Below are positions 16,797-44,827 of a DNA stretch of 64,000 bases, piece after piece. The notes below the pieces were generated by a model. That model was not told where the DNA came from. It searched no databases and saw only the letters and a program-made list of their open reading frames with translations. Where the stretch lies: contig CALVYF010000004.1 of NCBI GenBank assembly GCA_944372055.1, forward strand, positions 1,810 through 65,809. The letters run 5' to 3'. The translations under genes were made by a program, and so were the position numbers. The DNA is from an uncultured Bacilli bacterium (lineage in GTDB: Bacteria > Bacillota_I > Bacilli_A > RF39 > UBA660). How positions within the stretch are numbered: the first letter of the stretch is position 1; each line of letters opens with the position of its first letter.

Positions 16797-16877
16797 TTTT
16801 CTTTTCTTTTCTTTTTCTTAGATTTATAATAGAATAATGTTAGTTGTTAATTGCTCGAAGTAAGAGGTGGTGATATT

Positions 16878-17699: not shown

Positions 17700-17707
17700 G
17701 AGGAATT

Positions 17708-18499: not shown

Positions 18500-18586
18500 A
18501 TAGTATAACTTTTTTTCTTTTATCTTGTATTTCTTTTTGTTTTCATTTATTATATTATTGTATGATTATAATAGGATGTGATAGCT

Positions 18587-28589: not shown

Positions 28590-30407
28590 ATGGATAATCA
28601 AAAAGTTATTGATAAGAAATTTATTAGATATCTTAAAACTGCTGTTGTAGTAATCGTTATTGCATTATTTTTATGGTTTTTAGTTATTCATCCTTTACTT
28701 ACATTTCATGGCTATGAAAAAGATATAGAGGCTGCTGCTAAAAGATATTACGAGATTAATGCAAGAGAATTACCTACTGGAACTCGTGTAAAGACAATTA
28801 GTGTTCAAAAATTATTTGATCAAGCTTATTTAAAAGAAGATTTTTATGTTCCTTTTTCTAAAAAACCATGTTCTATTACAGATAGCTGGGTTAAAGTTAG
28901 ACAAGAAGATGGAGAATATAGGTATTACACTTATTTAAAATGCGGTATTATTTCTTCTAATGTTGATCATAAAGGACCTGAAATTACTTTAAATGGGAAT
29001 GAAGAAGTTACTATTAATTTGGGTTCTAAGTATAAAGAAGAAGGCGTTAAAAGTGTTGTTGATAATATTGATGGCAAGATGGATGTTAAGAATGTAGAAA
29101 TTGATTCTACTGAGGTTAATACTAATAAGGCTGGTACTTATAAAGTAATATATACTGCCACTGATAGTTTGAACAATACAAATGAAGTTGTTAGAACAGT
29201 TAAGGTAGTAGAAAGGTTAAAAAATACAGTAAATAAGGCTACTAATAAGACTGGAGTATATACTGGGTCTAATCCAAATAACTATATTTATTTTTCGAAA
29301 ATGTTATTTAGAATTGTCGATATAGATGGTGACAATGTAAGAATTGTTGCAGAACAAGATGTTAGTAATGTTAATTATACTGCTATTGATGAATGGTTAG
29401 AGTATTATTATGATCATATCGCTGACGAATCTAAAAAAATTGTTGTAAAAAATAAATATTGTGATATGCAGACTAATGATAATGATATTTCTAGTATAGA
29501 TAAATGTAGTTCTTATACGAAAGAAAAAGAAGTCTCTATTTTATCAGCTAGTGATATTAATCAAGCAACAACAGAAGAGGGGAATTGGTTGCGTCCTGAT
29601 AGCATTTCCTGGGTTCGTAATGAAAAAGATAATAAGAATGCTTATACAGTTAGAAATAGATTCTATAATACAGATGCTCGTTATATGTCTTTTGATCAAA
29701 ATTATAATTTTGGTATTCGTCCAGTTTTGACTATTAAAGGTTCTACTTTAATAGAAGATGGCGATGGTACAAAAGAGAATCCTTATTCTATTGGGGATAT
29801 GGAAAGTGCTAAAGCTGGAGATAAATTAAATACGAGATATTCAGGTGAATTTGTTTCTTATTCTGGAATGTTATGGAGAGTTATGGAAATAGATTCTGAT
29901 AATACTACAAAAGTCATTGCTAATACTACTATTTATAATGATGGAGAACGTGTCCTTACTTCTTATGATACAGATTTAAAAGCAAAAATTTATAATCCCA
30001 AAGAACGTGGTAATGTAGGTTACTTTATTACTAATCAAGCTACACGATATCTAAATATGGATTCTTTTGTAACTAAAGAAATTGAAGTTCCTATTTATCA
30101 TAATATGATTCGATATGGAAAAGAAAGCACTACTAAAAAATATAAAGTAAAGATTTCTGCTCCTAATATGTATGAGATGTTTAGTGCTTTTGATTATAAT
30201 TCTGTTACAATGAAATCTTATTGGTTGATTAACTCTTCTAAAGCACAATATACAAAGGCACTGATTTCTGATATTGGTGTTGTGATGTATGGTTCTATTT
30301 ATGATAATGTAGAGTATGGTATTCGCCCTGTAGGTTATTTGAGTAAAGATTGTTCTATTGTGCGTGGTAAAGGTACTTATGAAGATCCATATATTATAGC
30401 AGAATAG
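28590..30407 (+). CDS. membrane-anchored surface protein: pilin-head-like domain, Ig-like (DUF5011-type) domain and two copies of a C-terminal module
   Basis: TM anchor followed by AAAKRYYE..ELP..ISVQKL..C..VKV..YRYYTYLKCG, which is alignable with the giant pilin head. GPEITLNG...GTYKVIYTATD...RTVKV is Ig-like. There are two modules ending in GIRPV...G(D/K)GT.E(N/D)PY(S/I)I. Confidence 0.6.
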   Translation: MDNQKVIDKKFIRYLKTAVVVIVIALFLWFLVIHPLLTFHGYEKDIEAAAKRYYEINARELPTGTRVKTISVQKLFDQAYLKEDFYVPFSKKPCSITDSWVKVRQEDGEYRYYTYLKCGIISSNVDHKGPEITLNGNEEVTINLGSKYKEEGVKSVVDNIDGKMDVKNVEIDSTEVNTNKAGTYKVIYTATDSLNNTNEVVRTVKVVERLKNTVNKATNKTGVYTGSNPNNYIYFSKMLFRIVDIDGDNVRIVAEQDVSNVNYTAIDEWLEYYYDHIADESKKIVVKNKYCDMQTNDNDISSIDKCSSYTKEKEVSILSASDINQATTEEGNWLRPDSISWVRNEKDNKNAYTVRNRFYNTDARYMSFDQNYNFGIRPVLTIKGSTLIEDGDGTKENPYSIGDMESAKAGDKLNTRYSGEFVSYSGMLWRVMEIDSDNTTKVIANTTIYNDGERVLTSYDTDLKAKIYNPKERGNVGYFITNQATRYLNMDSFVTKEIEVPIYHNMIRYGKESTTKKYKVKISAPNMYEMFSAFDYNSVTMKSYWLINSSKAQYTKALISDIGVVMYGSIYDNVEYGIRPVGYLSKDCSIVRGKGTYEDPYIIAE

Positions 30408-30422
30408 GTAGGTGATGGTAGT

Positions 30423-31229
30423 ATGAAGAAAAAAACTAAACTGCTGATTTCGAAAAAAAAGAAAGTATTTCTAATTATTGGAATTCTATCTTTTTTGTGT
30501 TTACTGGCAGCAATTATTTTCTTGTTGTTTTATGATTATTATCCAGTGGAAACTCGTATTGATAAAGTTTTAGAGTATCAAAAAGAAGATAGTGATGATT
30601 ATAATACGATAGGATGGCTTCGGGTTCAGGGGACTAATATAGATTATCCTGTAATCTATGCTCCTTCCTATGATTTTGGTGGAATGACGCATGATTTTCT
30701 TTGGAATGAAGTTAAAAGCGATAAACTTTTAAATCAAGTAACTGTTAGTGGTCATAATATTTTAAATTTATCTAAAAAACCTTTGGTTGTTAATAAGAAT
30801 CATAAAAGATTTGAGCAATTAATGAGTTTTGTTTATTTAAATTTTGTAAAAGATAATAAATATGTTCAGTATACGGTTAATGGTAAAGATTATTTATATA
30901 AAATATTTTCTGTTTCTTTTCCAGAAAGCTCTGATATAAAAAAGTTTACAAGAAAAGATCTTAGTAAAAAAGAAATGAGAGCATATTTAAATAAATCTAT
31001 AGATGAAAGTATTTTTGATTTTGATATAGATGTTAATGAGGGTGATAAAATTCTTTCTTTGGTTACCTGTACGAGGATGTTTGGTCATTACAATGATATT
31101 GAGTTTAGGGTAGATGCAAGATTGGTTCGAAAAGGTGAATTGAAGTCGAACTATGATGTTCAAAAAAGTAAGAATTATCATGAGATAGAAGAAATCATGA
31201 AAGGTGGAGAAAATGATGAAAAAGTGTAG
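30423..31229 (+). CDS. class B-like sortase
   Basis: N-terminal TM helix. Motifs GWLRVQGTNIDYPVIY, VSGHN (His), LSLVTCT (Cys) and FRVDARLVR (Arg). Confidence 0.7.
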   Translation: MKKKTKLLISKKKKVFLIIGILSFLCLLAAIIFLLFYDYYPVETRIDKVLEYQKEDSDDYNTIGWLRVQGTNIDYPVIYAPSYDFGGMTHDFLWNEVKSDKLLNQVTVSGHNILNLSKKPLVVNKNHKRFEQLMSFVYLNFVKDNKYVQYTVNGKDYLYKIFSVSFPESSDIKKFTRKDLSKKEMRAYLNKSIDESIFDFDIDVNEGDKILSLVTCTRMFGHYNDIEFRVDARLVRKGELKSNYDVQKSKNYHEIEEIMKGGENDEKV

Positions 31230-33981
31230 TAGAAGAATAATAGGGGTTTTTATACTTTTCGTTGTCGCAGTCGTTGCATTTTGTAGTTATAATATTTTAA
31301 GTTCTAGTCACTCTGCTCATGTTAGTAGAAATGAGAACTTAGCTAAAACTACAGATGGTGCTGCTTGTAATAATGATCAAGAAATGAGCGGGGAGTATAA
31401 TCCTAAAGTTTCATTTTCACAAGGGAAAGCGACAATTACTGTTAAAAAAGGTAGTTTTCGTGTCACTAATGTTACAAATGGGGAGATTTTAACAAATAAT
31501 CCTATGGATCTTGGTGTTGTTACTCCTGATAGTCCAATGGAAATTAACTTTAACACTAGTGCTTCTACTGATGTTGTATTACATTTTGTTTTAGCAGAGA
31601 CTGATGATACCTGTCTTTCTTATGATGAAGCACCATTTAATAGTGATGGTCAAAAGGCAGGTACTTATGAATTTGATATGACATTGCAGTTGAAACCACA
31701 GATGGATACACCATTAAAAGATAATAAAAATTATAATGGCATTTGTAGTGTTTTTAGAACGGGTACTGGCTATGAAAATTATGCTGCTATCTTTAAAGAA
31801 GCGGGAGTTAGTAAAAGTGATATTGAAAAATATAATTATAGTGCAGTAGATGCAAATCAAAAAGGTACTTATGATAGTATTATTCCTTATTGCTTATCTT
31901 CTAATCAAGTTACATTTAATTATACGGAAGAGCAGACAGCATCTTTAATTGCATCAGCAATTCTTATTGTTAGAAATCAAGCATCTGTTAGTGGAGAAAC
32001 TGATGTTTCAGAGTCTTTTATGACTGCATTTAACGATGCAAAAAGTAAGGCTTTATCTTTAGGTCATGATTATACTAATTTAGTTAAAAATGGTAGTATT
32101 GATGATACTCGCTTTGGAATGACTTGTGATTGGAAATTAGAGGAGTCTGACAGTGATTATTATGTAAATAAAGATTATTATTATGCTAAAGAAGTTGATA
32201 CTAAAAATATTAAATATACTTATCATTATACTTCTGGTAAGACAGAAGAAGTATCAGGTGGTTCTTGTACAAGAACTTGTGAGGAATCTGTGGTAGTTGA
32301 ATATGGTCCTCCTGTTGCATCTAAAGCAGGACTTTGTTTTGAATATAAAGTTAGGGTAACAAGCAGAGTAGTTTGTGATTCTTCTTTAAAATTACAACCA
32401 CCTACTACACCTAGTATTTGTACACCTACTCCATATTGTAATCAAGTTTCTGGGTTTACGCATCAAGGTGGACCTAATGAAGATTTTGAAAAATGTATTC
32501 AAGAATGTGATGGTGGAAAGTATAGTCAAAGTTGTAGTAATAAATGTTATAGTAAAGTTTATGCAAATGATGAAAGTAATGTTGATTTATTAGCTATTCG
32601 TTATGGAAATCAGTCTATTGTACAAAAAATGTGGAGTTCTTCTTTCCCAGGTTACAGTGGTCGCTATGTATGGAAAAATGGCAACATTGTTTGGGAAGGT
32701 AGTGGTTATGGTCGCTGGTATGAGGAATTTGAGGATGCTCGAACTCGTGGAGATCATGGTCATTATAATGTTTATTCTGGATTCAAGAAGGCTGATTATG
32801 GAGATGGAGATGTTTGTGCAGATAATTGTTATTGGTCTGGTTGTTCCGCTAATTCTTATTTAAATGAGTCTGATGCTGCTAAAGATACCGTTAACAATAT
32901 GAAAAAATATAATCAAGCGATTGCATCTTGCAGTGGTTCTGCTAGTTGTACTACGAAGACTGCTGAGTTTACCATAGGTATTGATTATACGGATACTGCT
33001 GGTGAAGATCATACAGTCGATTTCCCATTAGCTAGTTCAAAAGTTGATTCTGCTAAATTACCAAGTCATGGTGAAGGATTTAGTGGAACTACTTCAGGTA
33101 CGGAAATATTTATTCCAGAGTTAACGATTACTCCTGAAGATGAAGATGGTTATGCTGGATGTTATGATGATGCTAGTGCTAAGAATTGGTATCAAGTAGC
33201 TTGGAGTTTCCCTGGTACATGGATTAATAATAAGACTGGTGAAATTTCTTATGTTAATAAAGGAAATGATACAGCTTGGCATAAGCAAGAAGATAAATTC
33301 TGTATGCCATTAAATGCAGCTAGTGTTAATCAGACTTGGTGGAATTGGAAATTAATTGATAAAAACACTTCTGTAGATGAGAGTGATATTGATTATAATA
33401 TTCATGCTGCTACTACAGATTTTGGATATTTTGGATGGAATTTCGATTTTGAATGCTTCTATGCATTACAAAATGAAGAAGTATGTACTGGCGATGATTG
33501 TGATTCTGATTCTGATACTACAATTTCTACTGAAGATTATGTATTTAGAATCGTTGATTTAAATAATTTGTTCCCTGAGTCTGAAGAGTCTACTGAAAAG
33601 AATGAAAGTAAATTAGAAATTACAGGACGTCAACCTGGTTATAACTGGACGTTAGATGCCGATAATGTTGGAAATCAGACTACAGCTTTGTCTTTAACTG
33701 CTAAGAATACAAGTTATCCTGTAAATCCAATTGAATTAATTCAAGATATTCAATCTAAAGGTAATAGTATTTATTCTGATGAGTATCTTGATTATCGAAT
33801 TACTTTAGATAGTGATGCTTTAAAATATTTAAGGAATTATAATAAACAATATAAATATACTGATTATCAAGGTTCTACCGCTGTTAAAAATGGAGTTACT
33901 GCTTATAGAAGTTCAGTTATTACTAAACTTAATCCATCTAAGCGTGCTGGATATGGTAATAATACTGGGAAGGGGGCATAA
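31213..33981 (+). CDS. large secreted cysteine-rich protein (candidate adhesin or tip protein)
   Basis: The ATG at 31213 follows AAGGTGGAG. Signal/anchor RRIIGVFILFVVAVVAF. There are 27 Cys in the track ORF, many in CxxC-like or closely spaced pairs. No C-terminal sorting signal. No family recognised. Confidence 0.6.
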   Translation: MMKKCSRRIIGVFILFVVAVVAFCSYNILSSSHSAHVSRNENLAKTTDGAACNNDQEMSGEYNPKVSFSQGKATITVKKGSFRVTNVTNGEILTNNPMDLGVVTPDSPMEINFNTSASTDVVLHFVLAETDDTCLSYDEAPFNSDGQKAGTYEFDMTLQLKPQMDTPLKDNKNYNGICSVFRTGTGYENYAAIFKEAGVSKSDIEKYNYSAVDANQKGTYDSIIPYCLSSNQVTFNYTEEQTASLIASAILIVRNQASVSGETDVSESFMTAFNDAKSKALSLGHDYTNLVKNGSIDDTRFGMTCDWKLEESDSDYYVNKDYYYAKEVDTKNIKYTYHYTSGKTEEVSGGSCTRTCEESVVVEYGPPVASKAGLCFEYKVRVTSRVVCDSSLKLQPPTTPSICTPTPYCNQVSGFTHQGGPNEDFEKCIQECDGGKYSQSCSNKCYSKVYANDESNVDLLAIRYGNQSIVQKMWSSSFPGYSGRYVWKNGNIVWEGSGYGRWYEEFEDARTRGDHGHYNVYSGFKKADYGDGDVCADNCYWSGCSANSYLNESDAAKDTVNNMKKYNQAIASCSGSASCTTKTAEFTIGIDYTDTAGEDHTVDFPLASSKVDSAKLPSHGEGFSGTTSGTEIFIPELTITPEDEDGYAGCYDDASAKNWYQVAWSFPGTWINNKTGEISYVNKGNDTAWHKQEDKFCMPLNAASVNQTWWNWKLIDKNTSVDESDIDYNIHAATTDFGYFGWNFDFECFYALQNEEVCTGDDCDSDSDTTISTEDYVFRIVDLNNLFPESEESTEKNESKLEITGRQPGYNWTLDADNVGNQTTALSLTAKNTSYPVNPIELIQDIQSKGNSIYSDEYLDYRITLDSDALKYLRNYNKQYKYTDYQGSTAVKNGVTAYRSSVITKLNPSKRAGYGNNTGKGA

Positions 33982-33987: not shown

Positions 33988-34452
33988 ATGAATAAAGCGA
34001 TGTTAACCGTTGGTATTATCATTTTAAGTTTAGCTACTTTATTAATGATTAATATTATTTCCAATTATTCATCAGGTAGTGAGTTGGATTACTACCTGGT
34101 GAAGGAAACATCAGAAGCAGCTATGGTTGATGCTATTGATGTAAAGTATTATCGTGAAAATGGATTACTTCGTATTGATAAAGAAAAATTTGTTGAGAGT
34201 TTTGTTAGAAGATTTGCTGATTCTGTAGATACTACTAGAAATTATCAACTTTCTTTCTATGATTTAAATGAAGTTCCACCAAAAGTAAGTGTCAAAGTAG
34301 ATTCTTCTACAGTACTAAGTTTTAAGGGTTCTGATTTGGAGATGTCTACAAAATTAGATGCTATTTTAGAAAATACTTATAAAACTGATCCATTAGTTAC
34401 TACAGAGATTAATGATCCAGATAGTGATTTTGGTAAACCAGTGGAAGAATAA
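33988..34452 (+). CDS. small membrane-anchored protein, possible TadE/TadF-like pseudopilin
   Basis: N-terminal hydrophobic helix MLTVGIIILSLATLLMINII with a 120-aa domain. Located just upstream of cpaB. The function is inferred from context only. Confidence 0.35.
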   Translation: MNKAMLTVGIIILSLATLLMINIISNYSSGSELDYYLVKETSEAAMVDAIDVKYYRENGLLRIDKEKFVESFVRRFADSVDTTRNYQLSFYDLNEVPPKVSVKVDSSTVLSFKGSDLEMSTKLDAILENTYKTDPLVTTEINDPDSDFGKPVEE

Positions 34453-34471
34453 AAAGGAAGGTGAGGATAAA

Positions 34472-35290
34472 ATGGGAAATCTCAGTGTTGGAATAAAAAA
34501 GTTTTTATCCAATAAAAATACAGTTACTGTTGTTGGTGTGGTTGTTGCTGTTTTGGTATTATATATAGCATATAATATGCGTGTTCAAGCAGCTGTAAAT
34601 CCTATTAGTGTTCCGTATGCGACAGAGCAAATTGAGCCAGGGACACAAATTACAGAGGATATGGTAAGTACAATGGATGTTCCTCCTTCAATGCTTGAAG
34701 GAGATGTTATTAGAAATCAAGCTGATGTTATTGATAAATATTCTAATGCAGATACATTAATACCTCAGGGAAGTTTATTTTATACTAGACAAGTAGTTGA
34801 AAAAGAACAATTACCGGCTAATATTATTTTAGATTATCCTAAGGGTTATGTTTTATATAATATGCCTGTTAATACTGAATCTACTTATGGTAATTCTATT
34901 TATCCAGGAAATTATATTGACATTTATTTAAAAATAACTAGAAAAAGTACTGGTGATCAACAAGCTGTTACTAATGAAGATAGTGAGTTGATGCAGTATG
35001 GTAAGTTTATTCAGAATGTTAAAGTTTTAGCTGTTAAAGATTCTTCTGGTCAACCTGTATTTTCTAATTTGGATGAGCAAAGAACTCCAGCGATGTTAGT
35101 ATTTGCTTTACCTGAGGAGTATTATATTTTATTAAAGAAAGCAAGTTATTTAACTTTGTATGATTCTGAGCTTGTTCCAGTTCCAACTAATGAAAGTTTA
35201 CAAGATAAACCTGATGATTTGGAAATGAGTAGTGAAAGTCTTCGTGATTGGATTGAAACTGTTACTTACTGGGACGAAAGTATGGGGTAG
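34472..35290 (+). CDS. cpaB: Flp pilus assembly protein CpaB/RcpC-like (SAF domain)
   Basis: TM anchor followed by a SAF-like segment (EQIEPGTQITEDMVSTMDVPPSMLEGDVI) and VKVLAV. Confidence 0.6.
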   Translation: MGNLSVGIKKFLSNKNTVTVVGVVVAVLVLYIAYNMRVQAAVNPISVPYATEQIEPGTQITEDMVSTMDVPPSMLEGDVIRNQADVIDKYSNADTLIPQGSLFYTRQVVEKEQLPANIILDYPKGYVLYNMPVNTESTYGNSIYPGNYIDIYLKITRKSTGDQQAVTNEDSELMQYGKFIQNVKVLAVKDSSGQPVFSNLDEQRTPAMLVFALPEEYYILLKKASYLTLYDSELVPVPTNESLQDKPDDLEMSSESLRDWIETVTYWDESMG

Positions 35291-35319
35291 AAATTAACGA
35301 ATAAAAAGGAGTTGGGCAT

Positions 35320-36747
35320 ATGAATGAGAACATATTTGATAAGTTAGATTTTGGTCCTTTGCGTCCTTTGCTTGATAATGATGATATTACGGATATTTCA
35401 TTCGATAATAATGGTCAGATTTGGGTAAGGTCTCTAACACAAGGATCTTTAAGAGTAGAGGTTCAAGGATTAACTCCTGAATTTATTGAGAAGTTAGCTT
35501 TTCAATGCTCTAATGTTATGGGAACTACATTTAACAATGCTAAACCATTCTTGGATGCTGAATCAGCAGAGTTACGTTTGAATTTCGTTCATCCTTCTAT
35601 TGCTACTAACGGAATTGCGATGGTTATTCGTAAAACTCCTGCTAAAATTCGTTTGGAAAAGGATAAGTTACTTAAAGATGATTATTTTACACAAGATATT
35701 CATGATATTTTGATTAAATGTGTGGAAGGTCACTGTAATATTATTGTCTGTGGAGAGACTGGTTCTGGTAAAACAGAATTTGTTAAGTACTTGGCGAGTC
35801 ATACGCGTACAAATGAAAAGATTATTACTATTGAAGATACTTTAGAACTTCATTTGGATAAAATTTTCCCTCAAAGAGATATTGTTGCGATGAAGACTAA
35901 TAATGTTGCTAGTTATACAGATGTGCTTGTTACTTGTATGCGTCAGAATCCTAAATGGATATTATTATCTGAGGTTCGTAGTGCAGAAGCTGTTTCGGCA
36001 GTTCGTAACTCTATTTCTTCTGGACATAATATTTTATCAACCATTCATGCTGATAAAGCTTCTGCTATTCCTTATCGTATGTATAGTTTGATGGAAACAG
36101 ATTTGGATGTTAATCAATTTTTAAATACTATTTATCGATATATTCAAATTGGTGTTCATATTAAGGCTTATTATAGTAAGGAATTGGGAAAATTTCATCG
36201 TGAGGTTGATGAAGTTGCTGAATTCTATGTTGATGAGGAAAATAAACCGCAATGTAGAATTATATATCAAAAATTGTTTGGACAGGAACCGGTGTTACGT
36301 AAACCTAGTCCACATTTAATTGAATATTTAGAAAATCAAAATATTGATATTAACTCTATTACTGAACATTTAAGCGATGATTTACCGTTTAAAGATGATG
36401 AAGAGAAGGAAGAATATATGGAGAGTCATAAAGCAGAGGATGATACTACTGGTGATTCTGTGGAGACTACTAACGATGAAGAAGTTCCTCAAGTTGTAAA
36501 TATTACTCCTGTAGTGCAACCAACAGTACAAAGTGCTCCTGTTGTTAATTCAACAGTCCCTAATTCGAGTGCTGTACTAGCTGTAACACCGACGGTTCAA
36601 GTTCCAGCAGCTATGAGTGTAGAACCATCTATACAACTTGCTCCTACTGTGGAGACATCTCCAAATACTTCCACTATACCTACTCCTAATGAAGCACTAA
36701 ACGTTACGTCACCTGTAGATTTTTCTTCTTTAGGTAATTTAGAGTAG
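35320..36747 (+). CDS. cpaF: CpaF/TadA-type secretion ATPase (T2SSE family) with a P/T/V-rich C-terminal tail
   Basis: Walker A VCGETGSGKTEF, TIEDTLEL, Walker B-like WILLSEVR and His box STIHA. The last 120 aa or so are low-complexity. Confidence 0.85.
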   Translation: MNENIFDKLDFGPLRPLLDNDDITDISFDNNGQIWVRSLTQGSLRVEVQGLTPEFIEKLAFQCSNVMGTTFNNAKPFLDAESAELRLNFVHPSIATNGIAMVIRKTPAKIRLEKDKLLKDDYFTQDIHDILIKCVEGHCNIIVCGETGSGKTEFVKYLASHTRTNEKIITIEDTLELHLDKIFPQRDIVAMKTNNVASYTDVLVTCMRQNPKWILLSEVRSAEAVSAVRNSISSGHNILSTIHADKASAIPYRMYSLMETDLDVNQFLNTIYRYIQIGVHIKAYYSKELGKFHREVDEVAEFYVDEENKPQCRIIYQKLFGQEPVLRKPSPHLIEYLENQNIDINSITEHLSDDLPFKDDEEKEEYMESHKAEDDTTGDSVETTNDEEVPQVVNITPVVQPTVQSAPVVNSTVPNSSAVLAVTPTVQVPAAMSVEPSIQLAPTVETSPNTSTIPTPNEALNVTSPVDFSSLGNLE

Positions 36748-36763
36748 AGAGGGGTGTAAATTT

Positions 36764-37666
36764 ATGTATATAGAAGAGTTGATTTTTTTACTTGTTTTAG
36801 TTGTTGTTATTGTTCTTTATCGTAATTATAAAGGACAAAATGTTGGTAAATTTATTACTTCTCAAGTACAAGGAGTGTATGATAAATTTGCACCTTATTC
36901 TTTTAAAGTTGTACGTGAAAAGACAAAAGAGTTAGGGCAGGAATATACTCCTAGACAATATTTAATTCAAGTTATTATTATGGGAGCTTTTGCTGCCGTA
37001 GTTAGTTATCTATATTTCTATAATTTATTTATTTCATTGGTTTATATGATTGTTGTAATCATGTTTATACCATATTTATCTTATTTACGTTGTAAACGTG
37101 TTTATAGTGAATTTATTTTTGAACAAATTCAAGTTTATACTTCTAATACTATTATGGAATTTGCTACTACGCAGTCTTTTGTCAAAGCTTTGGAGGGTGT
37201 TCGTAACTCTGGTATTTTAGAAGACCCAGTAAAAAGTGATGTTGATCATATGATTGAACTTGCTTATCAGAATGGTAGTATTGAAGAATCTCTTACTTAT
37301 ATGAGTGGTTTGTATCCTTATTATATTGTAAAGAATATGCATCAGTTGTTTTTACAAATTACTAAAGAGGGTGCTAGAAACTCTATGGAGTCTTTGGATA
37401 ATATGCAGCTTGATATTGATATGCTTGTTGAAAGTGTTTATCGTGACCGTATTGAACGTGCTTCTTTTCATAAATCTTTTTTACAATTTGGTATTATGCT
37501 TTATTTATTAGTTATGTTAACTCAATATTTGTTAGGGCGTGAAACGTATTTAATTATGTTAGAACGTTGGTATGTAAAACTTCTACTGCACGGAGTCTTA
37601 ATTATTAATACATACTTCTTATTAAAGGGTGAAAAATATTATAATGAGAATGTAGGTGCTGAATAA
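36764..37666 (+). CDS. tadB: TadB-like type II secretion system F-family membrane protein
   Basis: Polytopic protein immediately after cpaF. It has a soluble helical segment (ALEGVRNSGILEDPV...NGSIEESL) between TM blocks, as in GspF/TadB. Confidence 0.55.
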   Translation: MYIEELIFLLVLVVVIVLYRNYKGQNVGKFITSQVQGVYDKFAPYSFKVVREKTKELGQEYTPRQYLIQVIIMGAFAAVVSYLYFYNLFISLVYMIVVIMFIPYLSYLRCKRVYSEFIFEQIQVYTSNTIMEFATTQSFVKALEGVRNSGILEDPVKSDVDHMIELAYQNGSIEESLTYMSGLYPYYIVKNMHQLFLQITKEGARNSMESLDNMQLDIDMLVESVYRDRIERASFHKSFLQFGIMLYLLVMLTQYLLGRETYLIMLERWYVKLLLHGVLIINTYFLLKGEKYYNENVGAE

Positions 37667-38451
37667 TGGTAGAGATTGTTATAGTTGGTGCTATTATTAT
37701 ATTTGTTTTAATATATAATAATACGATTGATAAGAATAAGTTTATAGCTGATAATGAAAAGTATTTTGATATTTTAAGAGAAGAAGATTATAACTTTTTA
37801 GTATATGCTAGATATGGTGAAGAAGTTGATCCTAATATATTATTTAGAAAAAGAATATATTATGCTGTTTTAGTAGCTATTGTGTTTCTATTTATATTTT
37901 TAAATCAGTTATCATTTCTTAATGTTGTGTTTTGTATTGTTGTAGCAGCTCTTGTTTTTAAGATGCCGTATACACAATTAAAACAGTTTTATAAGGCACA
38001 TTTACATGATATTGATGTTATGTTGCCATATTATTTAAAGAGTTTGGAAATTTTAATTCAACATTATACAGTTCCGGTTGCCTTAGGTAAGTCTATTGAT
38101 GATGCTCCTGATATTTTTAAACCTGGACTTCGTCGATTGATTGAACGTATTAACTCCGGGGATTCTACTATAGATCCATATATGGAGTTCGCTAATACGT
38201 ATCCAGTACGAGATTCTATGCGTATGATGCGTTTGTTGTATCGTTTAGGTCTTGGTTCTCAGGAAAGAAAACAAGAACGTTTAATGATGTTTTCTAGAAC
38301 TGTTTCAAATCTACAGAACAAAGCACGTGAAACTAAATATAAAGAACGTCTTAATCATATGGAGAGTCAAACTATGGTCATGCTTGTAGTTACTGGTATG
38401 GGTACTATGGTTATTATTTTGGTTTCTATGATGATGATGTTTAACATGTAA
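37666..38451 (+). CDS. tadC: TadC-like type II secretion system F-family membrane protein
   Basis: Start overlaps the tadB-like stop. TM-soluble-TM layout with LGKSIDDAPDIFKPGLRRLIERINSGDSTIDPYMEFA. Confidence 0.55.
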   Translation: MVEIVIVGAIIIFVLIYNNTIDKNKFIADNEKYFDILREEDYNFLVYARYGEEVDPNILFRKRIYYAVLVAIVFLFIFLNQLSFLNVVFCIVVAALVFKMPYTQLKQFYKAHLHDIDVMLPYYLKSLEILIQHYTVPVALGKSIDDAPDIFKPGLRRLIERINSGDSTIDPYMEFANTYPVRDSMRMMRLLYRLGLGSQERKQERLMMFSRTVSNLQNKARETKYKERLNHMESQTMVMLVVTGMGTMVIILVSMMMMFNM

Positions 38452-38466
38452 AGTAAGTAAATTTTA

Positions 38467-38495
38467 TTGTAAAAGTGAAATTATGTTGGTATAAT
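38467..38495 (+). promoter_or_regulatory. sigma-A type promoter upstream of the Flp-like pilin gene
   Basis: TTGTAA, a 17-nt spacer, then TGgTATAAT (extended -10). Confidence 0.5.
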
Positions 38496-38535
38496 ATATA
38501 ATGTATATAGAATAGGAAAGGATGTGTATGTCTTA

Positions 38536-38709
38536 ATGAAAGCAGCAACAGGTGAATTAAATTTAACAGTAATTACTCTTATTGCTATTGCGGCAGTAAT
38601 TGGTTTTTTCTGGATTATGTGGCCTAATATTCAAGGTTCTATTAACTCTCAATGGGAGAATATTTCAAGTGATTATAGTGGATATATTGTTTTAGAACAT
38701 AATAAATAA
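38536..38709 (+). CDS. candidate Flp/type IVc-like small pilin
   Basis: 57 aa: short leader MKAATG followed by the hydrophobic helix ELNLTVITLIAIAAVIGFFW. It has its own promoter and sits in the Tad context. It lacks the classical G/xxxxEY motif. Confidence 0.45.
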   Translation: MKAATGELNLTVITLIAIAAVIGFFWIMWPNIQGSINSQWENISSDYSGYIVLEHNK

Positions 38710-38724
38710 AAGGTGGTGTAGGAA

Positions 38725-39171
38725 ATGCGGGATGCTTTAGGTGGTGTTGTCAATTTAGCAATGATTGTTGTATTCCTAGTTTTGGTGTGTGGATATTTAG
38801 CATTTAATGTTAATTATACTAAAGCATTCCGTGTTAAAAACTACATTATCACTTCTTTAGAACAGTATGAAGGTAATTGTAAAAGTGGTACTACTTGTTC
38901 TAATAAAATACAGGCATATATTAAGCAGGTAGGTTATAGCGCTCCAGAATTTCATTTAGAGGATGATTATATTTGTAATTATGGATATTGTTATAAAGAA
39001 TTTAAAGTTTCTAAAGAAACTGGTGATGCTGTTTCTGAGTCTAAAGAGCAAGTTTACTATAGAGTTGTTACTCAGATTAATATTGATATACCAATTATCA
39101 ACAGAATTATGCCTGGTTTAAAGATTTTTCAGATTTCTGGTAATACAAAGTTAATAACACCGTTTAAATAG
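38725..39171 (+). CDS. TadE-like pseudopilin candidate
   Basis: N-terminus MRDALGGVVNLAMIVVFLVLVCGYLAF resembles the TadE N-terminal hydrophobic segment. The domain contains Cys. Confidence 0.4.
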   Translation: MRDALGGVVNLAMIVVFLVLVCGYLAFNVNYTKAFRVKNYIITSLEQYEGNCKSGTTCSNKIQAYIKQVGYSAPEFHLEDDYICNYGYCYKEFKVSKETGDAVSESKEQVYYRVVTQINIDIPIINRIMPGLKIFQISGNTKLITPFK

Positions 39172-39185
39172 GAGAGGTGGCTCTT

Positions 39186-40208
39186 ATGAATGTTATTGTT
39201 AGTAATCAGCAACGTAATGTTTTATCAGGATTAGATATTGATATAATAAAAAGTATTTCTGGTGAATATGATGCAACTGAGTTAGTAGAAATGTTTAAAA
39301 ACTTTTTCTATAATAAAATGATTTTGGATGTGACTGCAATTAAAGATTACCATAGTGTTAAAAGTTTTCAGACGATAGCTATGGGGTTAGATGTAGAAAA
39401 AATTGTTTTCTTTTTGCCAGAAGGAAGTGATGTTTGTACTTCTAATTTTTTGTCTAAATTAGTTTCTATGGGAATTTATAATTTTACTACGAATATAGAA
39501 GGAGTAAAATATTTATTAGAGCATCCAAATACTTATAAACAGGTTGCACATATTCAACAATTAAATGATGTATCTAATGTAAATTCAGTTATGGCAAGTG
39601 TTGAAAGTAGTTCTAATCCCTCTGATAGTTCTACTAGGTTTCGTGGCTCTATCGTAATAGGGGTACGAAATGTTACAGAGGATGCTGGAGCAACTACTTT
39701 TATTTATATATTAAAAAAGGAACTAAAAACTTATTTTGGAGATACTATTATTGCTTTAGAACTTAATAAAAATGATTTTCAGTTTTTTGGTGACAAAAAT
39801 ATGATATCTATTTCTTCTGATCAATTGCAGGGTGCTTTAGCACGCTATTCTGGTGCTTCGGTTCTTTTAGTTGATTTAAATGATTATCCTGATGATTCTT
39901 TCTGTGGAGAAGTTTTGTATTTATTGGAACCATCCACGATTAAACTTAATAAGTTGATTCGGAGAAATCGTAATATTTTTTCAAAACTTCAACATCAAAA
40001 AATTGTTTTAAATAAAAGTTTACTTTCCAATAAGGATATTATGGATTTTGAATATGAAGCGAAAATAAAAGTTTTTTATAATATGCCTCCTCTAGATGAG
40101 AGAAAGAAAAATCCTGTTTTGGAAGACTTTTTATCTCGTTTAGGTATTGTTGCAAAAAGGGAAGAGAAGAAAGAAACAGGTAAAATTTTTGGTTTATTTC
40201 GTAGGTAA
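39186..40208 (+). CDS. TadZ/CpaE-like protein (receiver-like N-domain plus degenerate ParA/MinD-like domain)
   Basis: IVIGVRNVTEDAGATTFIYIL occupies the position of the deviant Walker A but lacks the KGG..GK(T/S) residues. The size and position fit TadZ. Confidence 0.4.
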   Translation: MNVIVSNQQRNVLSGLDIDIIKSISGEYDATELVEMFKNFFYNKMILDVTAIKDYHSVKSFQTIAMGLDVEKIVFFLPEGSDVCTSNFLSKLVSMGIYNFTTNIEGVKYLLEHPNTYKQVAHIQQLNDVSNVNSVMASVESSSNPSDSSTRFRGSIVIGVRNVTEDAGATTFIYILKKELKTYFGDTIIALELNKNDFQFFGDKNMISISSDQLQGALARYSGASVLLVDLNDYPDDSFCGEVLYLLEPSTIKLNKLIRRNRNIFSKLQHQKIVLNKSLLSNKDIMDFEYEAKIKVFYNMPPLDERKKNPVLEDFLSRLGIVAKREEKKETGKIFGLFRR

Positions 40209-40210: not shown

Positions 40211-40239
40211 TTGACAAACATTTTATTTTAAGATAAGAT
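40211..40239 (+). promoter_or_regulatory. sigma-A type promoter at the head of the T4SS module
   Basis: TTGACA, a 17-nt spacer, then TAAGAT, directly after the tadZ-like stop. Confidence 0.55.
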
Positions 40240-40263: not shown

Positions 40264-40620
40264 ATGTTAGATTTATTTCAATTAGGAGTAGTTGGAAATG
40301 TAGATGACAACTGCGGAGGATTAGAGCCTATTGTTAGAATTATTAAGAAAGGTGTATTTCCTATTGTTCAAATTGGTATTCCAATTTTATTAATTGTATT
40401 TGGTACTATCGATTTAGGTAAAGCTGTTATTTCTAGTGATGAAAAAGAAGTAAAACAAGCACAAAGTCGTTTAATTAAAAGATGTATTTATGCAGTTGCA
40501 ATCTTCTTTATTACTACTTTAGTAAGTTTGATTATGTCTTTAGTTTCTACTGGTACTGAAGGTGGAGACGGTGAAGCTGATACTGCTGGATGGGCTAACT
40601 GCTGGAATAGTATTAAATAG
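40264..40620 (+). CDS. VirB2/TrbC-like (PrgF-position) two-TM hairpin protein, candidate T4SS pilin
   Basis: 118 aa: NC-TM1 (IPILLIVFG)-charged loop (SSDEKEVKQAQSRLIKR)-TM2-NCW. First gene after the promoter, with RBS AAGGAGAG and a terminator behind it. Confidence 0.55.
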   Translation: MLDLFQLGVVGNVDDNCGGLEPIVRIIKKGVFPIVQIGIPILLIVFGTIDLGKAVISSDEKEVKQAQSRLIKRCIYAVAIFFITTLVSLIMSLVSTGTEGGDGEADTAGWANCWNSIK

Positions 40621-40636
40621 GAAAATGATAAAATTA

Positions 40637-40665
40637 AATAGCAAAGTAATTGCTATTTTTTTTTT
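40637..40665 (+). terminator. rho-independent terminator or attenuator after the hairpin pilin-like gene
   Basis: 8-bp stem AATAGCAA/TTGCTATT with a 5-nt loop, followed by T9. Confidence 0.65.
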
Positions 40666-40712
40666 ATTTTGATATACTTATTCTGTATGATTGTATATAT
40701 GGAGTGGTGACA

Positions 40713-41912
40713 GTGAAACAGTTTAAATTTTTCTTATTTATCTTTGTCTTTGGTATGTTGTTTTTTGTTCCATATAATACGAAAGCCTTAGAAAATAAAG
40801 TGGTTAGTTGTGATTATCAGTTTACTAATATTCATGGAGAAAAAATTGAATTAGAATATAAGGTGTATTCTGATGGTACTGTCAAAAAGCCTTTTACGGA
40901 TGGTACTTTATATGCAAATGATGGCATTTCTTGGTATCATGCTGATCGTTTTTCTTCAGTTTATTATAATGCAGCAAAACTTAATAGTTATACAATAACT
41001 TGTCCTTCTATTTATGTTCAAGAAAATGATTCTGGTGTTACTGTTTATCCTTATCCACTGAATAGTAGTTCATGTACGGGTCGCTGTTATAATATTACAT
41101 CAGCTTCTCCTAAGCTTTCTAGCTGGGCTAAAGATATTGGGATAAAATCAAAGAGACTTTTGTCAACTTGCACGGGTTCTAGCATGGGATTTTATAATCG
41201 TAAAAGTTATGTTTTACCATATTTTAGGCTTTATTCTGATGGTACAAAAGAATGGAGTGTAGATGGAGAATTATATGTTCCTATTGCTAATGCGATTACT
41301 GGTAAAGTAGGAGATGATAAGTTTTCTATTACAGTAAACGATTCTTTGATTAATTCTATTTTTTCTTCATCAAAGACTACTTGTCCTGCGCAGATTTATC
41401 GTTGTGTTACAAAGACTAAAAATGGTTATTTTTATGAATTGTCCTCTAGTGCTAATCAATGCAGTAAAGATGAGTTGGGTAATAGTGATAGTCAAGGATT
41501 TGGTTCTAAGTATTTTGAAGGTGCTTTTGGAGATCCAACTGATGATAGCAATAATAGCAATAGTTCTGATGTTTTGACGGATTTGCAAGAGAATATCAAT
41601 TCTTATAATCAAAATCCAGAGTGTAATTCTCTTTTGGGAGATGTAGGCAACCCAGAATCAGTTGCTTGGTTATTGCAACAACTTTTAAATTATGTTAAGA
41701 TTTTAGGACCAATTTTGGTTGTTATTCTTAGTAGTTTAGATTTTGCTAAAGCTATTATTGCCAGTGATGATGATAATATGAAAAAAGCGGAACGTAAATT
41801 AATGATTCGTTTAATTTTGGCGGTTGCACTATTTTTGATTCCTACACTTGTTAGTGTTTTACTTAATGTTTTTGGAATCACTTCTGATAATCAAATTTGT
41901 GGTTTGAAATAA
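40713..41912 (+). CDS. secreted Cys-containing domain fused to a C-terminal VirB2-like hairpin
   Basis: The GTG at 40713 lies 8 nt after GGAG. Signal peptide KQFKFFLFIFVFGMLFFVPYNTKA. The C-terminal 90 aa (ECNSLLG...GPILVVILSS...DDDNMKKAERK...FLIPTLVSVLLNVFG..QICG) match the hairpin module. Confidence 0.6.
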   Translation: MKQFKFFLFIFVFGMLFFVPYNTKALENKVVSCDYQFTNIHGEKIELEYKVYSDGTVKKPFTDGTLYANDGISWYHADRFSSVYYNAAKLNSYTITCPSIYVQENDSGVTVYPYPLNSSSCTGRCYNITSASPKLSSWAKDIGIKSKRLLSTCTGSSMGFYNRKSYVLPYFRLYSDGTKEWSVDGELYVPIANAITGKVGDDKFSITVNDSLINSIFSSSKTTCPAQIYRCVTKTKNGYFYELSSSANQCSKDELGNSDSQGFGSKYFEGAFGDPTDDSNNSNSSDVLTDLQENINSYNQNPECNSLLGDVGNPESVAWLLQQLLNYVKILGPILVVILSSLDFAKAIIASDDDNMKKAERKLMIRLILAVALFLIPTLVSVLLNVFGITSDNQICGLK

Positions 41913-41927
41913 AGGTAGGTGATATTA

Positions 41928-43955
41928 ATGACAGATACTTCTACTGCAGATGTGTTTCGTAATTTAGGAAGAACTTTGGGACAAATTTTTAATGTTTGTA
42001 TTTATGCGCTTTTAGGATGGATGTATCAGATATTCTTTAACGTTGCTGGTGCTCAATTGTTTGAAAATGAAACTATTAAGAATTTTTATGGACGTGTTCA
42101 ATTGATTATTGGTGTGTTCATGGTATTCAAAGTGGCAATTTTTATTTTGCAGGGAATTGTGAATCCAGATAAATTTATGGATCCAAAAGAGGGAATTGGT
42201 AATTTTATTACTAGAGTAGTTATCGCTCTTGCTTTACTTACTGTCTTGGTTCCTATTAATATTCCTAATGTTGAAAGTGCTAATTCTTACGAAAAATATC
42301 TTAATAATAATGGTCTTTTGTTTGGTACTTTATATTCTTTACAAGATAGAATTTTGTCTAACAATACACTTGGTAGGCTGATATTAGGTACTACCGATGA
42401 TGCTGATGACAATACAGGAGAACAAGATACTTCTGGTATGACCGAAGCTGAAATTCAGACACAAAAGTTAGAAAGATCTTCTCGAATTTTTACTTCAACA
42501 ATTTTAAAGGGATTTTTAAGAATTAATTTACTCCCTGAGGAAGTTCGTAAATCAGATGATGAAAATGATCAAGAAAATTGGTATTGTGGTGATCATATTG
42601 GGCAAGATGAAAAGGATGCTATTAATATTTATAGACAATTAGATGTTGCTCCTGAAATTTTACTTGATGATGCAATTGTTAAAGCAAAATGTGATTTGAA
42701 TCAGTCTTTTGGGGGCGCCATAGGTAATTTCTTTAATATCGGAGGGGATGCAAAATATTTATTTGCTTTTAATTGGTGGCCGATTGCTATGATTGTTGGG
42801 ATAATCTTTTTAGTTATCATGGTCGGATTTACTGTTGATATTGCAATCAGATCTATTAAACTTGCAATTTTACGTTTGATAGCCCCTATTCCTGTAATTA
42901 GTTATATTGAACCAAAATCATCGAAAGATGGTGGAATGTTTGCTTCATGGGTCAAGGCTTTAACATCGACTTATTTAGATTTGTTTTTGAGATTAGCTAT
43001 TGTATATTTTGTTATTTTCTTAATACAAGATATGATTGTTAATGGTGTTGTTATTAATGAAGCTACTGGTTCTGTTGGAATATTTTCTATTATCTTTATT
43101 TGGATTGGTTTATTCTTCTTTGCTAAGATGGCTCCTAAATTTATTAAAGATGCCCTTGGATTAAAAGGTTCTATGTCTAATGTTGGTCTTAGTGGTATTT
43201 TAGGTGCTGCTGGTGCCATTCGTCAAGGAGGATCAGTGATGGATGCGGCTTGGGCTGCTAGTGATGCTGCTAATGCACAGGTCCAATCATATAATCAAGG
43301 TAAGCCTGCTCCTAGTGTTGGCATGGCTTTTAACGCAGGTAGAGATTTAGCAGCACAGATGATGACCGGTGATGAGCGTATGAATCATCAAAAAATGTCT
43401 CGTGGTTGGTGGCAATTGAGGGAGATGGGTATTACACCTCAAGGTGCTGATAAAGTCCATAAGGCTGCTATTAATGCGCAGGCATTTAGCGATCGTATGT
43501 CTTCAGACTTTGTTGCTGGTGTTGGACAATACATGGATAAAAATGGACAAATGCATGATTATCAGTATAAAGATGATCAAGGTAATCTTCATAGTGTTAT
43601 GGATTGGGCTACTGATGAAAACGGTAATAGAGTTCGAGTTCTTAACAAAGATAAAGCTTCTCTTGCTTTGGCACAACAGAGAGAACTTGCTGGAAAACTT
43701 GCTTCTCGTGATAAGAAAATTGACGCAGAAATGCATAGGACTGGTCAAGCTCGTGGATTTCGAGATTCTGTACGTAGACCAAATGATAAATCAACTCATC
43801 CACTTACTCAAGGGATTACGGATGTATATTTGTCTAGACGAAAAGCGCAGACTTATGATCCAGTTGAGGATAAATATGGGGAAAAAGGTGAAGATAATTA
43901 TATGTTGCGTGGTGGTACTCATGCTACAGGATATGATATTACTGAGCATTACTAA
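41928..43955 (+). CDS. VirB6/TrbL-like polytopic channel protein (PrgH/TcpH position)
   Basis: At least 6 TM helices, a long hydrophilic C-terminal domain, and a position between the pilin-like genes and VirB3/VirB4. The call rests on context and topology only. Confidence 0.5.
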   Translation: MTDTSTADVFRNLGRTLGQIFNVCIYALLGWMYQIFFNVAGAQLFENETIKNFYGRVQLIIGVFMVFKVAIFILQGIVNPDKFMDPKEGIGNFITRVVIALALLTVLVPINIPNVESANSYEKYLNNNGLLFGTLYSLQDRILSNNTLGRLILGTTDDADDNTGEQDTSGMTEAEIQTQKLERSSRIFTSTILKGFLRINLLPEEVRKSDDENDQENWYCGDHIGQDEKDAINIYRQLDVAPEILLDDAIVKAKCDLNQSFGGAIGNFFNIGGDAKYLFAFNWWPIAMIVGIIFLVIMVGFTVDIAIRSIKLAILRLIAPIPVISYIEPKSSKDGGMFASWVKALTSTYLDLFLRLAIVYFVIFLIQDMIVNGVVINEATGSVGIFSIIFIWIGLFFFAKMAPKFIKDALGLKGSMSNVGLSGILGAAGAIRQGGSVMDAAWAASDAANAQVQSYNQGKPAPSVGMAFNAGRDLAAQMMTGDERMNHQKMSRGWWQLREMGITPQGADKVHKAAINAQAFSDRMSSDFVAGVGQYMDKNGQMHDYQYKDDQGNLHSVMDWATDENGNRVRVLNKDKASLALAQQRELAGKLASRDKKIDAEMHRTGQARGFRDSVRRPNDKSTHPLTQGITDVYLSRRKAQTYDPVEDKYGEKGEDNYMLRGGTHATGYDITEHY

Positions 43956-43983: not shown

Positions 43984-44301
43984 GTGAATTATTTAATACC
44001 TGCTAATACGAAGAAAGGTCAATTAATCTTAGGATTATTTAGACCTTTCGACTTGATTTTATTTTTATCCGGGGTTATGGTTACTGTTATATTACTGGCT
44101 TTTTTACCACTTACTAATACTTGGCTTACTATTTTAATAGTTAGTCCGGCTGTTATTTGTGGATTTCTTGTAATGCCAGTACCTTATTATCATAATATTT
44201 TAAATATTATTGTTGAGATATATGAGTATTTTTCTAATCCTCAGACATATCATTGGAAAGGTTGGTGTTTCATGAATGAAAAAGAAAATCGTAGGAAGTA
44301 A
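43984..44301 (+). CDS. PrgI/VirB3-like small membrane protein
   Basis: 105 aa: IPANTKKGQLILGLFRPFDLILFL followed by two TM helices. It overlaps the VirB4 N-terminal gene. Confidence 0.6.
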   Translation: MNYLIPANTKKGQLILGLFRPFDLILFLSGVMVTVILLAFLPLTNTWLTILIVSPAVICGFLVMPVPYYHNILNIIVEIYEYFSNPQTYHWKGWCFMNEKENRRK

Positions 44302-44827
44302 TTTTACAGAGAATTGGTTACCTGTTAAAGCGATTCAAAATGGTATGATTATTACGTATGATAATTTAAAAGTTTCTGGAGTTAAAATTTCTCCACGTAA
44401 TATCTTTATTTTAGATCCACAAGCTCAAGATAATGTATTAATTAGTTTAAAGAATTTCTATAATATGATAGATTTTGAGTTTTGGTTAGTAGTTGCAGAT
44501 AGACCTGTAGATATTTCTGTTTATATGTCTCAACTACAACTTTTATACAATGAAACACAATCTCCTGCTATACGCAAATTAATTATGCAAGATATTGATA
44601 AGGGAAATACATTTATTAATAATAATATTGTTGATACTGAGTATTATTTCTTATTTAAAGAGAAAGATTCAGATGTGGTTCAAAAGAAAGTTCGTATGTT
44701 AATCCAAGGACTTGCTAGTTGTGGACTTAATGCTTCACAAACTACGAATGATGATTTAAGAATTATTTTGGATAATTTCTTAAACGGGGGTAAAACTACT
44801 GAATTTGGGACGGTGATGCCTGTATGA
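44276..44827 (+). CDS. VirB4-family ATPase, N-terminal fragment (separate ORF)
   Basis: FTENWLPVKAIQNGMIITYDNLKVSGVKISPRNIFIL matches the conserved start of Gram-positive VirB4/TcpF/PrgJ-type proteins. It ends in an ATGA overlap with the next ORF. Confidence 0.6.
   Translation: MKKKIVGSNFTENWLPVKAIQNGMIITYDNLKVSGVKISPRNIFILDPQAQDNVLISLKNFYNMIDFEFWLVVADRPVDISVYMSQLQLLYNETQSPAIRKLIMQDIDKGNTFINNNIVDTEYYFLFKEKDSDVVQKKVRMLIQGLASCGLNASQTTNDDLRIILDNFLNGGKTTEFGTVMPV

Follow-up and report, generated by a model that had tools for sequence, protein, structure and literature searches.

A candidate disulfide-clasped pair of T4SS_pilin-like hairpin proteins in a chromosomal type IV secretion and Tad locus of uncultured gut Bacilli

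The T-pilin and the TrbC pilin of plasmid RP4 are cyclised head to tail. Two-helix hairpins of about 70 residues, collected in the Pfam family PF18895 (T4SS_pilin), are treated as pilins in the Patescibacteria (candidate phyla radiation, CPR), where several paralogues per locus lie beside VirB4, VirB6 and VirB3 in chromosomal, mostly relaxase-less type IV secretion systems (T4SSs) of monoderm type and MPF_FATA ancestry. Here we describe two adjacent genes in a 64,000-nt stretch (hereafter the window) of contig CALVYF010000004.1 from an uncultured Bacilli bacterium (assembly GCA_944372055.1). Their products, a stand-alone protein of 118 aa (type A) and a domain-fused protein of 399 aa (type B), share a two-helix hairpin module with a cysteine in each outer flank, here called the cysteine bracket. 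This kind of hairpin is already known from PF18895, from the 'pilin-like' families of NCBIfam and from the Patescibacterial pilins. According to the literature searched, the cysteine bracket and the parity rule it follows, the constant pairing of types A and B, and the hydrolase fusions in Bacillota are new; no mention of the bracket was found in that literature, and the Pfam model spans the helices only, leaving the cysteine flanks outside.

With moderate confidence, we read the two genes as encoding a pair of T4SS hairpin subunits of PF18895 type, probably with an intramolecular disulfide clasp, that belong to a lineage-wide chromosomal T4SS and Tad apparatus. They would encode paired small subunits of a chromosomal, Mollicutes integrative and conjugative element (ICE)-like, MPF_FATA-related T4SS of Candidatus (Ca.) Faecimonas and its relatives. 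The hairpin would insert with both ends outside and a cytoplasmic loop rich in K/R, the outer flanks forming a small cap from an N-terminal helix and a Trp-rich C-terminal helix, and one cysteine per flank would pair within the molecule to close a covalent loop of ~96 residues. The 118-aa protein would be the abundant major subunit, made from its own conserved promoter and terminator, and the 399-aa protein a minor surface-exposed partner whose fast-evolving, disulfide-rich beta domain may act, in the manner of VirB5, as an adhesin or initiator. Two wall hydrolases encoded elsewhere in the genome would be tethered by this hairpin as well.

The hairpin module, its relatives and its topology

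A first, sequence-only reading of this DNA had found one architecture common to the 118-aa protein and the C-terminal end of its 399-aa neighbour, and this was borne out. All paired motifs were found in the two proteins (DDNCGG and PECNS, IPILL and GPILV, FFITTLVS and FLIPTLVS, ANCWNS and QICGLK), as were the loop motifs SSDEKEVKQAQSRLIKR and SDDDNMKKAERKLMIR, and BLASTP aligned the 118-aa protein with residues 308-386 of its partner (36% identity, 87 aa, E 2e-15). The same bracket had been claimed for two wall hydrolases encoded in a second locus, Locus A, and is indeed present in their N-terminal modules as C-x6-CC followed by SCWHS (Amidase_3) or ACWDT (NlpC/P60). The hydrolase modules are 47% identical to each other, and the amidase module aligns with the 118-aa protein (27% identity, 115 aa, E 8e-12) with both cysteines in register. 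Two hydrophobic helices and a short polar loop are evident from hydropathy and from AlphaFold2 (AF2) models, which place helices at residues 21-57, 60-93 and 107-116 of the 118-aa protein (predicted local distance difference test score, pLDDT, 75) and at 317-350 and 353-386 in the hairpin of the 399-aa protein.

At its N-terminus the 118-aa protein has a hydrophilic, acidic tail of 20 residues and no long signal peptide; a few relatives have signal peptides. Although a signal peptide is lacking, the extreme N-terminus, M-x-x-L/F-F/V-Q-I/L-L/G, is conserved in both the stand-alone and the hydrolase-fused subfamilies, and may contribute to the outer cap or act as a signal for insertion or recognition. 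In total, 1111 homologues of the 118-aa protein were found, and its exact sequence occurs on 423 contigs, marking a lineage that is common in the gut.

A profile of the four window copies, searched against 1.84 billion representatives, matched 9758 clusters (50% identity) at E ≤ 1e-3, 3487 of them at E ≤ 1e-10. The best 149 of these matches, all diverse representatives, are referred to below as the relatives. They include 59 stand-alone proteins; in 51 others a domain precedes a C-terminal module, and in 37 the module is N-terminal and leads into an enzyme, for the most part an NlpC/P60, amidase or CHAP/C39-like domain. More distant family members also lie in VirB-type T4SS loci. Two proteins (P0179 and P0224) carry a type A-like and a type B module in tandem on one polypeptide with four transmembrane (TM) helices, a Rosetta-stone hint that types A and B may interact.

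The PF18895 model of 71 positions, whose gathering score is 26.6 bits, covered the window copies from position 3 to 71 at 20.5, 19.4, 25.4 and 22.7 bits, all below gathering; the 20.5 bits belong to the 118-aa protein (E 4.9e-4), and the type B module matched at E 1.2e-3. Among the relatives, 65 of 149 matched PF18895 at E ≤ 1e-3 (best 6e-9), and some close relatives with a precomputed PF18895 match also carry the cysteine bracket. The module resembles the Patescibacterial members in being a two-helix hairpin matched over the full model and in the setting of its genes. It differs in its host, which belongs to the Bacillota (Bacilli), and in the fixed pairing of a stand-alone with a domain-fused copy, to which the wall-hydrolase fusions are added.

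Weaker links lead to the NCBIfam families Mbov_0395 ('pilin-like'), Mbov_0396 and MMCAP2_0566 from Mollicutes ICEs, and to pLS20_p028. For Mbov_0395 (NF045849) the window copies scored 12.6-16.7 bits and did not reach the 40-bit cut-off, and 12 of the 149 relatives matched at E ≤ 1e-3 (best 1.5e-6). Weak matches to the Mollicutes ICE families NF045889 and NF045848 and to NF045890 (pLS20_p028) were seen in 6, 5 and 11 relatives, respectively. The sequence-only reading had suggested a comparison with Mollicutes pilin-like conjugal proteins; all of these scores lie far under the family cut-offs. In these families, as here, a small hairpin, a membrane protein and VirB4 follow in the same order, and the VirB4 next to our hairpin genes is closest to the Mbov_0397 family. 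Their loci are on mobile elements, whereas the present one is chromosomal and lineage-wide.

The topology of the hairpin was predicted from the relatives. The loop between the helices holds a mean of 5.6 K+R, compared to 1.3-1.4 per 20-residue flank, and is richer in K+R than both flanks in 148 of the 149. In the hydrolase fusions the catalytic domain lies C-terminal to TM2 and must therefore be exported. Type B proteins have a signal peptide and a large domain N-terminal to TM1, and some stand-alone relatives carry a signal peptide ahead of the N-flank. Because of the positive-inside statistics, the fused exported domains and the signal peptides, the N-out/C-out topology with a basic cytoplasmic loop that had been proposed from the letters alone is well supported as a prediction, and it would place both bracket cysteines on the outer, exoplasmic face.

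Pilin subunit or membrane anchor

The grounds for the label 'VirB2-like' are how the module is built, where its gene lies and its relationship to PF18895, and not shown homology to solved pilins. With VirB2/TrbC the module shares the predicted topology of an N-out/C-out hairpin whose cytoplasmic loop is basic, and a gene placed before VirB3/VirB4. It differs in that searches by sequence, profile and Foldseek detected no similarity, in that the 118-aa protein lacks a long cleaved signal peptide, in its longer helices and extra outer cap, and in its monoderm host. The earlier comparison with VirB2/TrbC held in part, by way of PF18895 and with both proteins of the pair below gathering; to the classical family no similarity was detected.

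The results that weigh against our reading concern this relationship and the idea of a homopolymeric pilus. The window copies score under the PF18895 gathering threshold. None of the 149 relatives matched PF04956 (TrbC/VirB2), which a control VirB2 matched at E 1.8e-17, and hhalign gave a probability of 0.13% for the module alignment against an alignment of seven annotated plasmid VirB2/TrbC proteins. A Foldseek search of the PDB with the AF2 model of the 118-aa protein returned a best E of 2.1 and no pilin among the matches listed; as Foldseek has little power with a helical hairpin as query, this counts little either way. Sequence-profile searches of the PDB gave spurious G-protein-coupled receptor and channel matches only. 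The rare two-module polypeptides, and the enzyme-borne modules of a locus at a distance from the T4SS, also speak against a homopolymer. Finally, Gram-positive T4SSs outside the Patescibacteria are said to be without VirB2 (PMC12857230), a statement that is itself challenged by a very large PF18895-like hairpin family of 9758 clusters tied to Bacillota T4SS genes.

The similarity to PrgF of pCF10 that the sequence-only reading had proposed to look for did not emerge (hhalign probability 1.9%, not significant). PrgF occupies the same gene position, upstream of PrgH/VirB6, and is likewise a two-TM hairpin with an N-D-D-P...K loop. It differs in being 75 aa long, without outer flanks and without cysteine, and it has a weak match to Maff2 and none to PF18895.

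The gene context was examined in GTDB species genomes, 234 of which contained relatives; 80 loci were kept, each from a species-level genome, and counts per 80 refer to these. The entire Tad and T4SS block is syntenic in the 80 loci. The hairpin genes lie beside VirB4, VirB6 and VirB3 of a monoderm T4SS, and the tandem type A and type B pair is found in 73/80 loci. The stand-alone protein is 53-99% identical across the loci; evolution is faster in the 399-aa protein, in VirB6 and in the hydrolase. Type B genes have a variable N-domain and end in C-G-(I/L)-K. We rejected the possibility that the hairpin is itself VirB3, as a separate VirB3-like gene is present (Table 1).

The 118-aa gene had been credited with its own promoter and terminator, and both recur across species. 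The number of promoter-like sites in the region is not above chance alone, and neither a promoter nor a terminator is compelling by itself in DNA of 30% GC. A -35 element TTGAC(A/T) with a -10 element TAnnAT is nevertheless found 38-62 nt (mostly 51-58) before the start codon in 72/80 related loci. Behind the gene, a hairpin with a 9-bp stem and a T10 run (free energy -12.4 kcal/mol, z-score -2.97), which a simple terminator scan missed as its stem has fewer than three G-C pairs, has counterparts in 67/80 loci that differ in stem sequence. Both signals are credible because they are conserved across species. Their conservation suggests that the stand-alone gene is expressed separately within the locus, and probably at a high level, as is expected of a major structural subunit. 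We infer that such a subunit could polymerise into a pilus or a wall-spanning conduit on VirB6.

Alternatively, the hairpin could be a static membrane anchor or docking module in or beside the VirB6/VirB3/VirB4 membrane complex that carries fused cargo such as hydrolases and adhesin-like domains, its cysteine pair stabilising a small outer cap. We consider this a real, if lesser, possibility. Many different domains are joined to the module, at one end or the other (37 and 51 of the 149 relatives, as counted above), Locus A is 23 kb away from the T4SS, and the two-module polypeptides suggest a fixed A-B pairing; together, these polypeptides and the enzyme fusions fit a static anchor as well as a polymerising pilin. 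The Foldseek and hhalign comparisons, which found no similarity to solved pilins, and the reviews that report no VirB2 in Gram-positive T4SSs agree with an anchor too. However, an anchor accounts less well for a stand-alone gene that has a dedicated, conserved promoter and terminator, as major pilins do, and that occupies the VirB2 position upstream of VirB6/VirB3/VirB4. It also sits uneasily with the tie to PF18895, whose Patescibacterial representatives are treated as pilins, and with a core that is highly conserved while the partner domain varies. On this evidence we continue to favour the PF18895-type subunit pair.

The cysteine bracket

In an alignment of the 118-aa protein with 120 homologues of at least 59% identity (121 sequences), Cys17 was present in 120/121 and Cys113 in 121/121, amid flank residues that are otherwise variable; the tryptophans W110 and W114 were kept in 120 and 119 sequences. 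The alignment of the 399-aa family, which reaches down to 38% identity, contained C304 in 116/117 and C396 in 117/117 sequences, and all 10 mature cysteines of the 399-aa protein were conserved in it. The sequence-only reading had called for such conservation in homologues and had proposed to survey the C...TM-loop-TM...CW pattern in related genomes. Cysteines in both flanks occurred in 143 of the 149 relatives, the six exceptions looking truncated or frameshifted, and the C-flank cysteine was directly followed by Trp in 106 of these 143. As the four-copy profile included the cysteine columns, which biased the ranking of the 149 towards cysteines, a core-only profile was built without these columns to remove the bias. 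All 77 of its new matches carried the bracket, 76 with one cysteine per flank (1+1) and one with 2+1, probably owing to a mis-called start. Some of the 77 have a precomputed PF18895 match. Judged from these alignments, the conservation of the cysteines is far beyond chance.

The number of cysteines carries further information. In the 59 stand-alone relatives, N- plus C-flank counts included 1+1 (34 proteins), 1+3 (10), 3+1 (3), 1+5 (3) and 3+3 (2). The total was even in 54/59 and the flank counts were odd plus odd in 52/59 (binomial P 2e-24), and additional cysteines appear in local pairs (C-x5-8-C) or in the form C-x6-C-C. Provided that every cysteine is paired, odd counts in both flanks mean that one bond crosses between the flanks. 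Each module of the two-module tandem proteins has a complete, even set of cysteines. The last N-flank cysteine lies 12-14 residues before TM1 in most relatives, and the linker on the C-side spans 1-26 residues. Other exported proteins of the window are also Cys-rich, for example an 875-aa protein with 30 cysteines.

Because of the conservation and the parity, an intramolecular disulfide that closes the hairpin is most likely, as far as sequence can tell. A self-contained unit of this kind fits the even sets of the tandem modules and the combination of a fixed N-linker with a flexible C-linker. Three observations point the other way. AF2 confidence is low near the bracket cysteines, with pLDDT blocks of 49-56 and 55-73 in the 118-aa protein and values below 50 in the 399-aa protein; no gene for a thiol-disulfide oxidoreductase or Dsb-like protein was seen among the window proteins scanned; and the host is a gut anaerobe. 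A lipoprotein lipobox at Cys17 was ruled out, since no hydrophobic signal sequence precedes this residue.

The flank cysteines might instead form intermolecular disulfides, from an N-flank to the next C-flank or from type A to type B, and so crosslink an oligomer or filament. Head-to-tail chains with one exoplasmic cysteine per flank would satisfy the parity just as well, types A and B co-occur as the tandem pair, and the monomer AF2 model does not place both cysteines confidently. Yet each module of the two-module proteins holds its own complete even set, the bracket is kept in hydrolase fusions that are unlikely to be stoichiometric filament subunits, and the fixed N-linker with the variable C-linker fits a loop that folds back on its own helix pair. 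We therefore regard crosslinking between molecules as quite improbable and retain the intramolecular clasp. Metal binding, acylation, a Cys-Trp crosslink or interface packing without a disulfide has very little chance of being the role of the cysteines: the strictly conserved Trp beside the C-flank cysteine, the anaerobic host and the lack of a visible Dsb-like gene in the window would suit such chemistry, but even totals with odd plus odd flanks are a signature of pairing, extra cysteines arrive in local pairs, and the type B module, which has no such Trp, keeps its cysteine.

The proposed clasp may be compared by analogy with pilin cyclisation. In the cyclic VirB2/TrbC pilins the ends are covalently joined by a peptide bond, and a disulfide would take its place here, leaving an N-tail of 16 residues and a C-tail of 5 residues outside the closure. 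If a disulfide is indeed formed, it would be a second, chemically different way to close a conjugative-type pilin alongside head-to-tail cyclisation, and the bracket would offer an easy experimental handle through reduction or Cys-to-Ser exchange. In type IV pilins, a conserved disulfide of the D-region stabilises the exposed part of the pilin. The proposed bond would resemble it in stabilising an exposed pilin part, and differs in fold, which is unrelated, in secretion machine and in bond position.

The Tad and T4SS locus, the partner protein and the hydrolases

The coordinates of the hairpin genes and their surroundings are collected in Table 1. The Tad-like genes directly upstream of the 118-aa gene are syntenic with the T4SS genes in 71-78/80 loci. 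The VirB4 protein matched the Mollicutes ICE family Mbov_0397 best (E 9e-107), followed by CD1110, and VirD4 exceeded the CD1115 family cut-off (305.6 versus 250 bits). VirB4 is split into an N-domain of ~185 aa (TraC-like) and an ATPase of ~596 aa, an arrangement that recurs in the distant loci L091 (12965-15595) and L094 (8862-11218); for this reason the split is not a frameshift artefact. Of these two loci, a VirB3-like open reading frame (ORF) of ~102 aa was seen in L091 only.

Table 1 Features of the window discussed in the text, with positions counted from its first nucleotide
Feature	Position	Strand	Evidence or remark
Amidase_3 hydrolase with N-terminal module (C9, C16, C17 ... C104-W)	15735-16796	+	PF18895 E 1.6e-5; Amidase_3 E 2.7e-10
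NlpC/P60 hydrolase with N-terminal module (C10, C17, C18 ... C105-W)	16878-17699	+	PF18895 E 1e-4; NLPC_P60 E 1.6e-15
250-aa and 263-aa bitopic membrane proteins, flanking both hydrolases	14970-18499		paralogues
875-aa protein adjoining Locus A	18578-21205		
605-aa, sortase-like and 925-aa proteins upstream of the Tad genes	28590-33981		
Tad-like pilus genes: DUF5411, CpaB-like, T2SSE ATPase, two TadB/C-like, Flp-like, TadE-like, 343-aa protein	33988-40208	+	
Sigma-70-like promoter of the 118-aa gene, TTGACA-17-TAAGAT	40211-40239	+	sequence scan, conservation
118-aa stand-alone hairpin protein (type A, CW-motif end), proposed major subunit	40264-40620	+	ORF, AGGAG 7 nt 5' of ATG
Conserved extreme N-terminus	40264-40290	+	
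Cys17 codon	40312-40314	+	N-flank, predicted exoplasmic; in 120/121 homologues
TM1 (residues 31-52), acidic/basic loop (53-73, cytoplasmic), TM2 (74-95)	40354-40548	+	hydropathy, AF2 helices, positive-inside statistics
Cys113 codon in W-x-x-C-W motif	40600-40602	+	C-flank, predicted exoplasmic; in 121/121 homologues
AT-rich hairpin and T-run, intrinsic terminator or attenuator 3' of the 118-aa gene	40636-40666	+	folding, conservation
399-aa protein (type B): signal peptide, beta-rich Cys-rich N-domain (30-265), disordered linker, C-terminal hairpin	40713-41912	+	
N-domain of the 399-aa protein	40800-41507	+	AF2
Type B module, Cys304 (41622-41624) to Cys396 (41898-41900) in terminal ICGLK	41622-41909	+	similarity, PF18895 match
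VirB6/TrbL-like polytopic membrane protein	41919-43955	+	TrbL_4 E 1.4e-5; syntenic in 73/80 loci
VirB3-like (105 aa), VirB4 N-terminal domain (183 aa), VirB4 ATPase (597 aa)	43984-46617	+	
SpoIID and C39-like wall hydrolase, 260-aa bitopic protein, VirD4 coupling protein	46642-52150	+	

The window is chromosomal, with RuvX, MltG, RmuC, a tRNA synthetase, trigger factor and Lon flanking the loci. No relaxase or integrase was found among the window proteins scanned with Pfam, and tblastn of two modules against 72,556 plasmids gave no match. A mobile element (ICE) was rejected in view of the housekeeping flanks, the Pfam scan without relaxase or integrase and the synteny in 80 species. The hosts are metagenome-assembled genomes of uncultured gut 'Bacilli', 'Tenericutes' or Mycoplasmatota, among them Ca. 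Faecimonas, Clostridium sp. CAG:417 and Ca. Scybalousia. A Tad and T4SS block with housekeeping flanks and no relaxase or integrase found parallels the chromosomal T4SSs of Patescibacteria. The apparatus around the hairpin pair is lineage-wide and chromosomal, and it has no assigned function.

Within the 399-aa protein, the N-domain (residues 30-265) is beta-rich and modelled by AF2 at pLDDT above 90, with a disordered linker leading to the hairpin. It has eight conserved cysteines and varies widely in length between species, and the AF2 model of the protein had no significant Foldseek match in the PDB or BFVD. We infer that the protein is an exposed minor partner of the major subunit.

Taken further, a disulfide-closed VirB2-like pilin might build a true T4SS pilus or wall-spanning conduit, as part of a vertically inherited, relaxase-less Tad and T4SS equipment of small-genome gut Bacilli. 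Such an apparatus could work as the essential T4SS of Patescibacteria does, in exchange between cells or in an epibiotic or antagonistic way of life, with the 399-aa protein as a variable tip adhesin and the hairpin hydrolases as filament-borne wall drillers or as effectors paired with the flanking paralogous membrane proteins. As a whole, we think this fuller picture rather unlikely.

For the hydrolase fusions of Locus A, a holin-endolysin explanation was discarded: the context is a chromosomal T4SS and Tad locus and not a phage, and with an N-out/C-out hairpin the enzyme would be exported. Both hydrolases are flanked by bitopic membrane proteins of 250 aa and 263 aa that are paralogues (33% identity, 177 aa, E 6e-37). 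By analogy, this arrangement resembles immunity-effector-effector-immunity or regulator-hydrolase pairs.

Two further groups of exported or surface proteins were noted. The 875-aa protein with 30 cysteines, which adjoins Locus A, has a prepilin-type N-terminal methylation motif and a Listeria-Bacteroides repeat. The cluster directly upstream of the Tad genes encodes an immunoglobulin (Ig)-like surface protein of 605 aa, a sortase-like protein and one of 925 aa that contains 27 cysteines.

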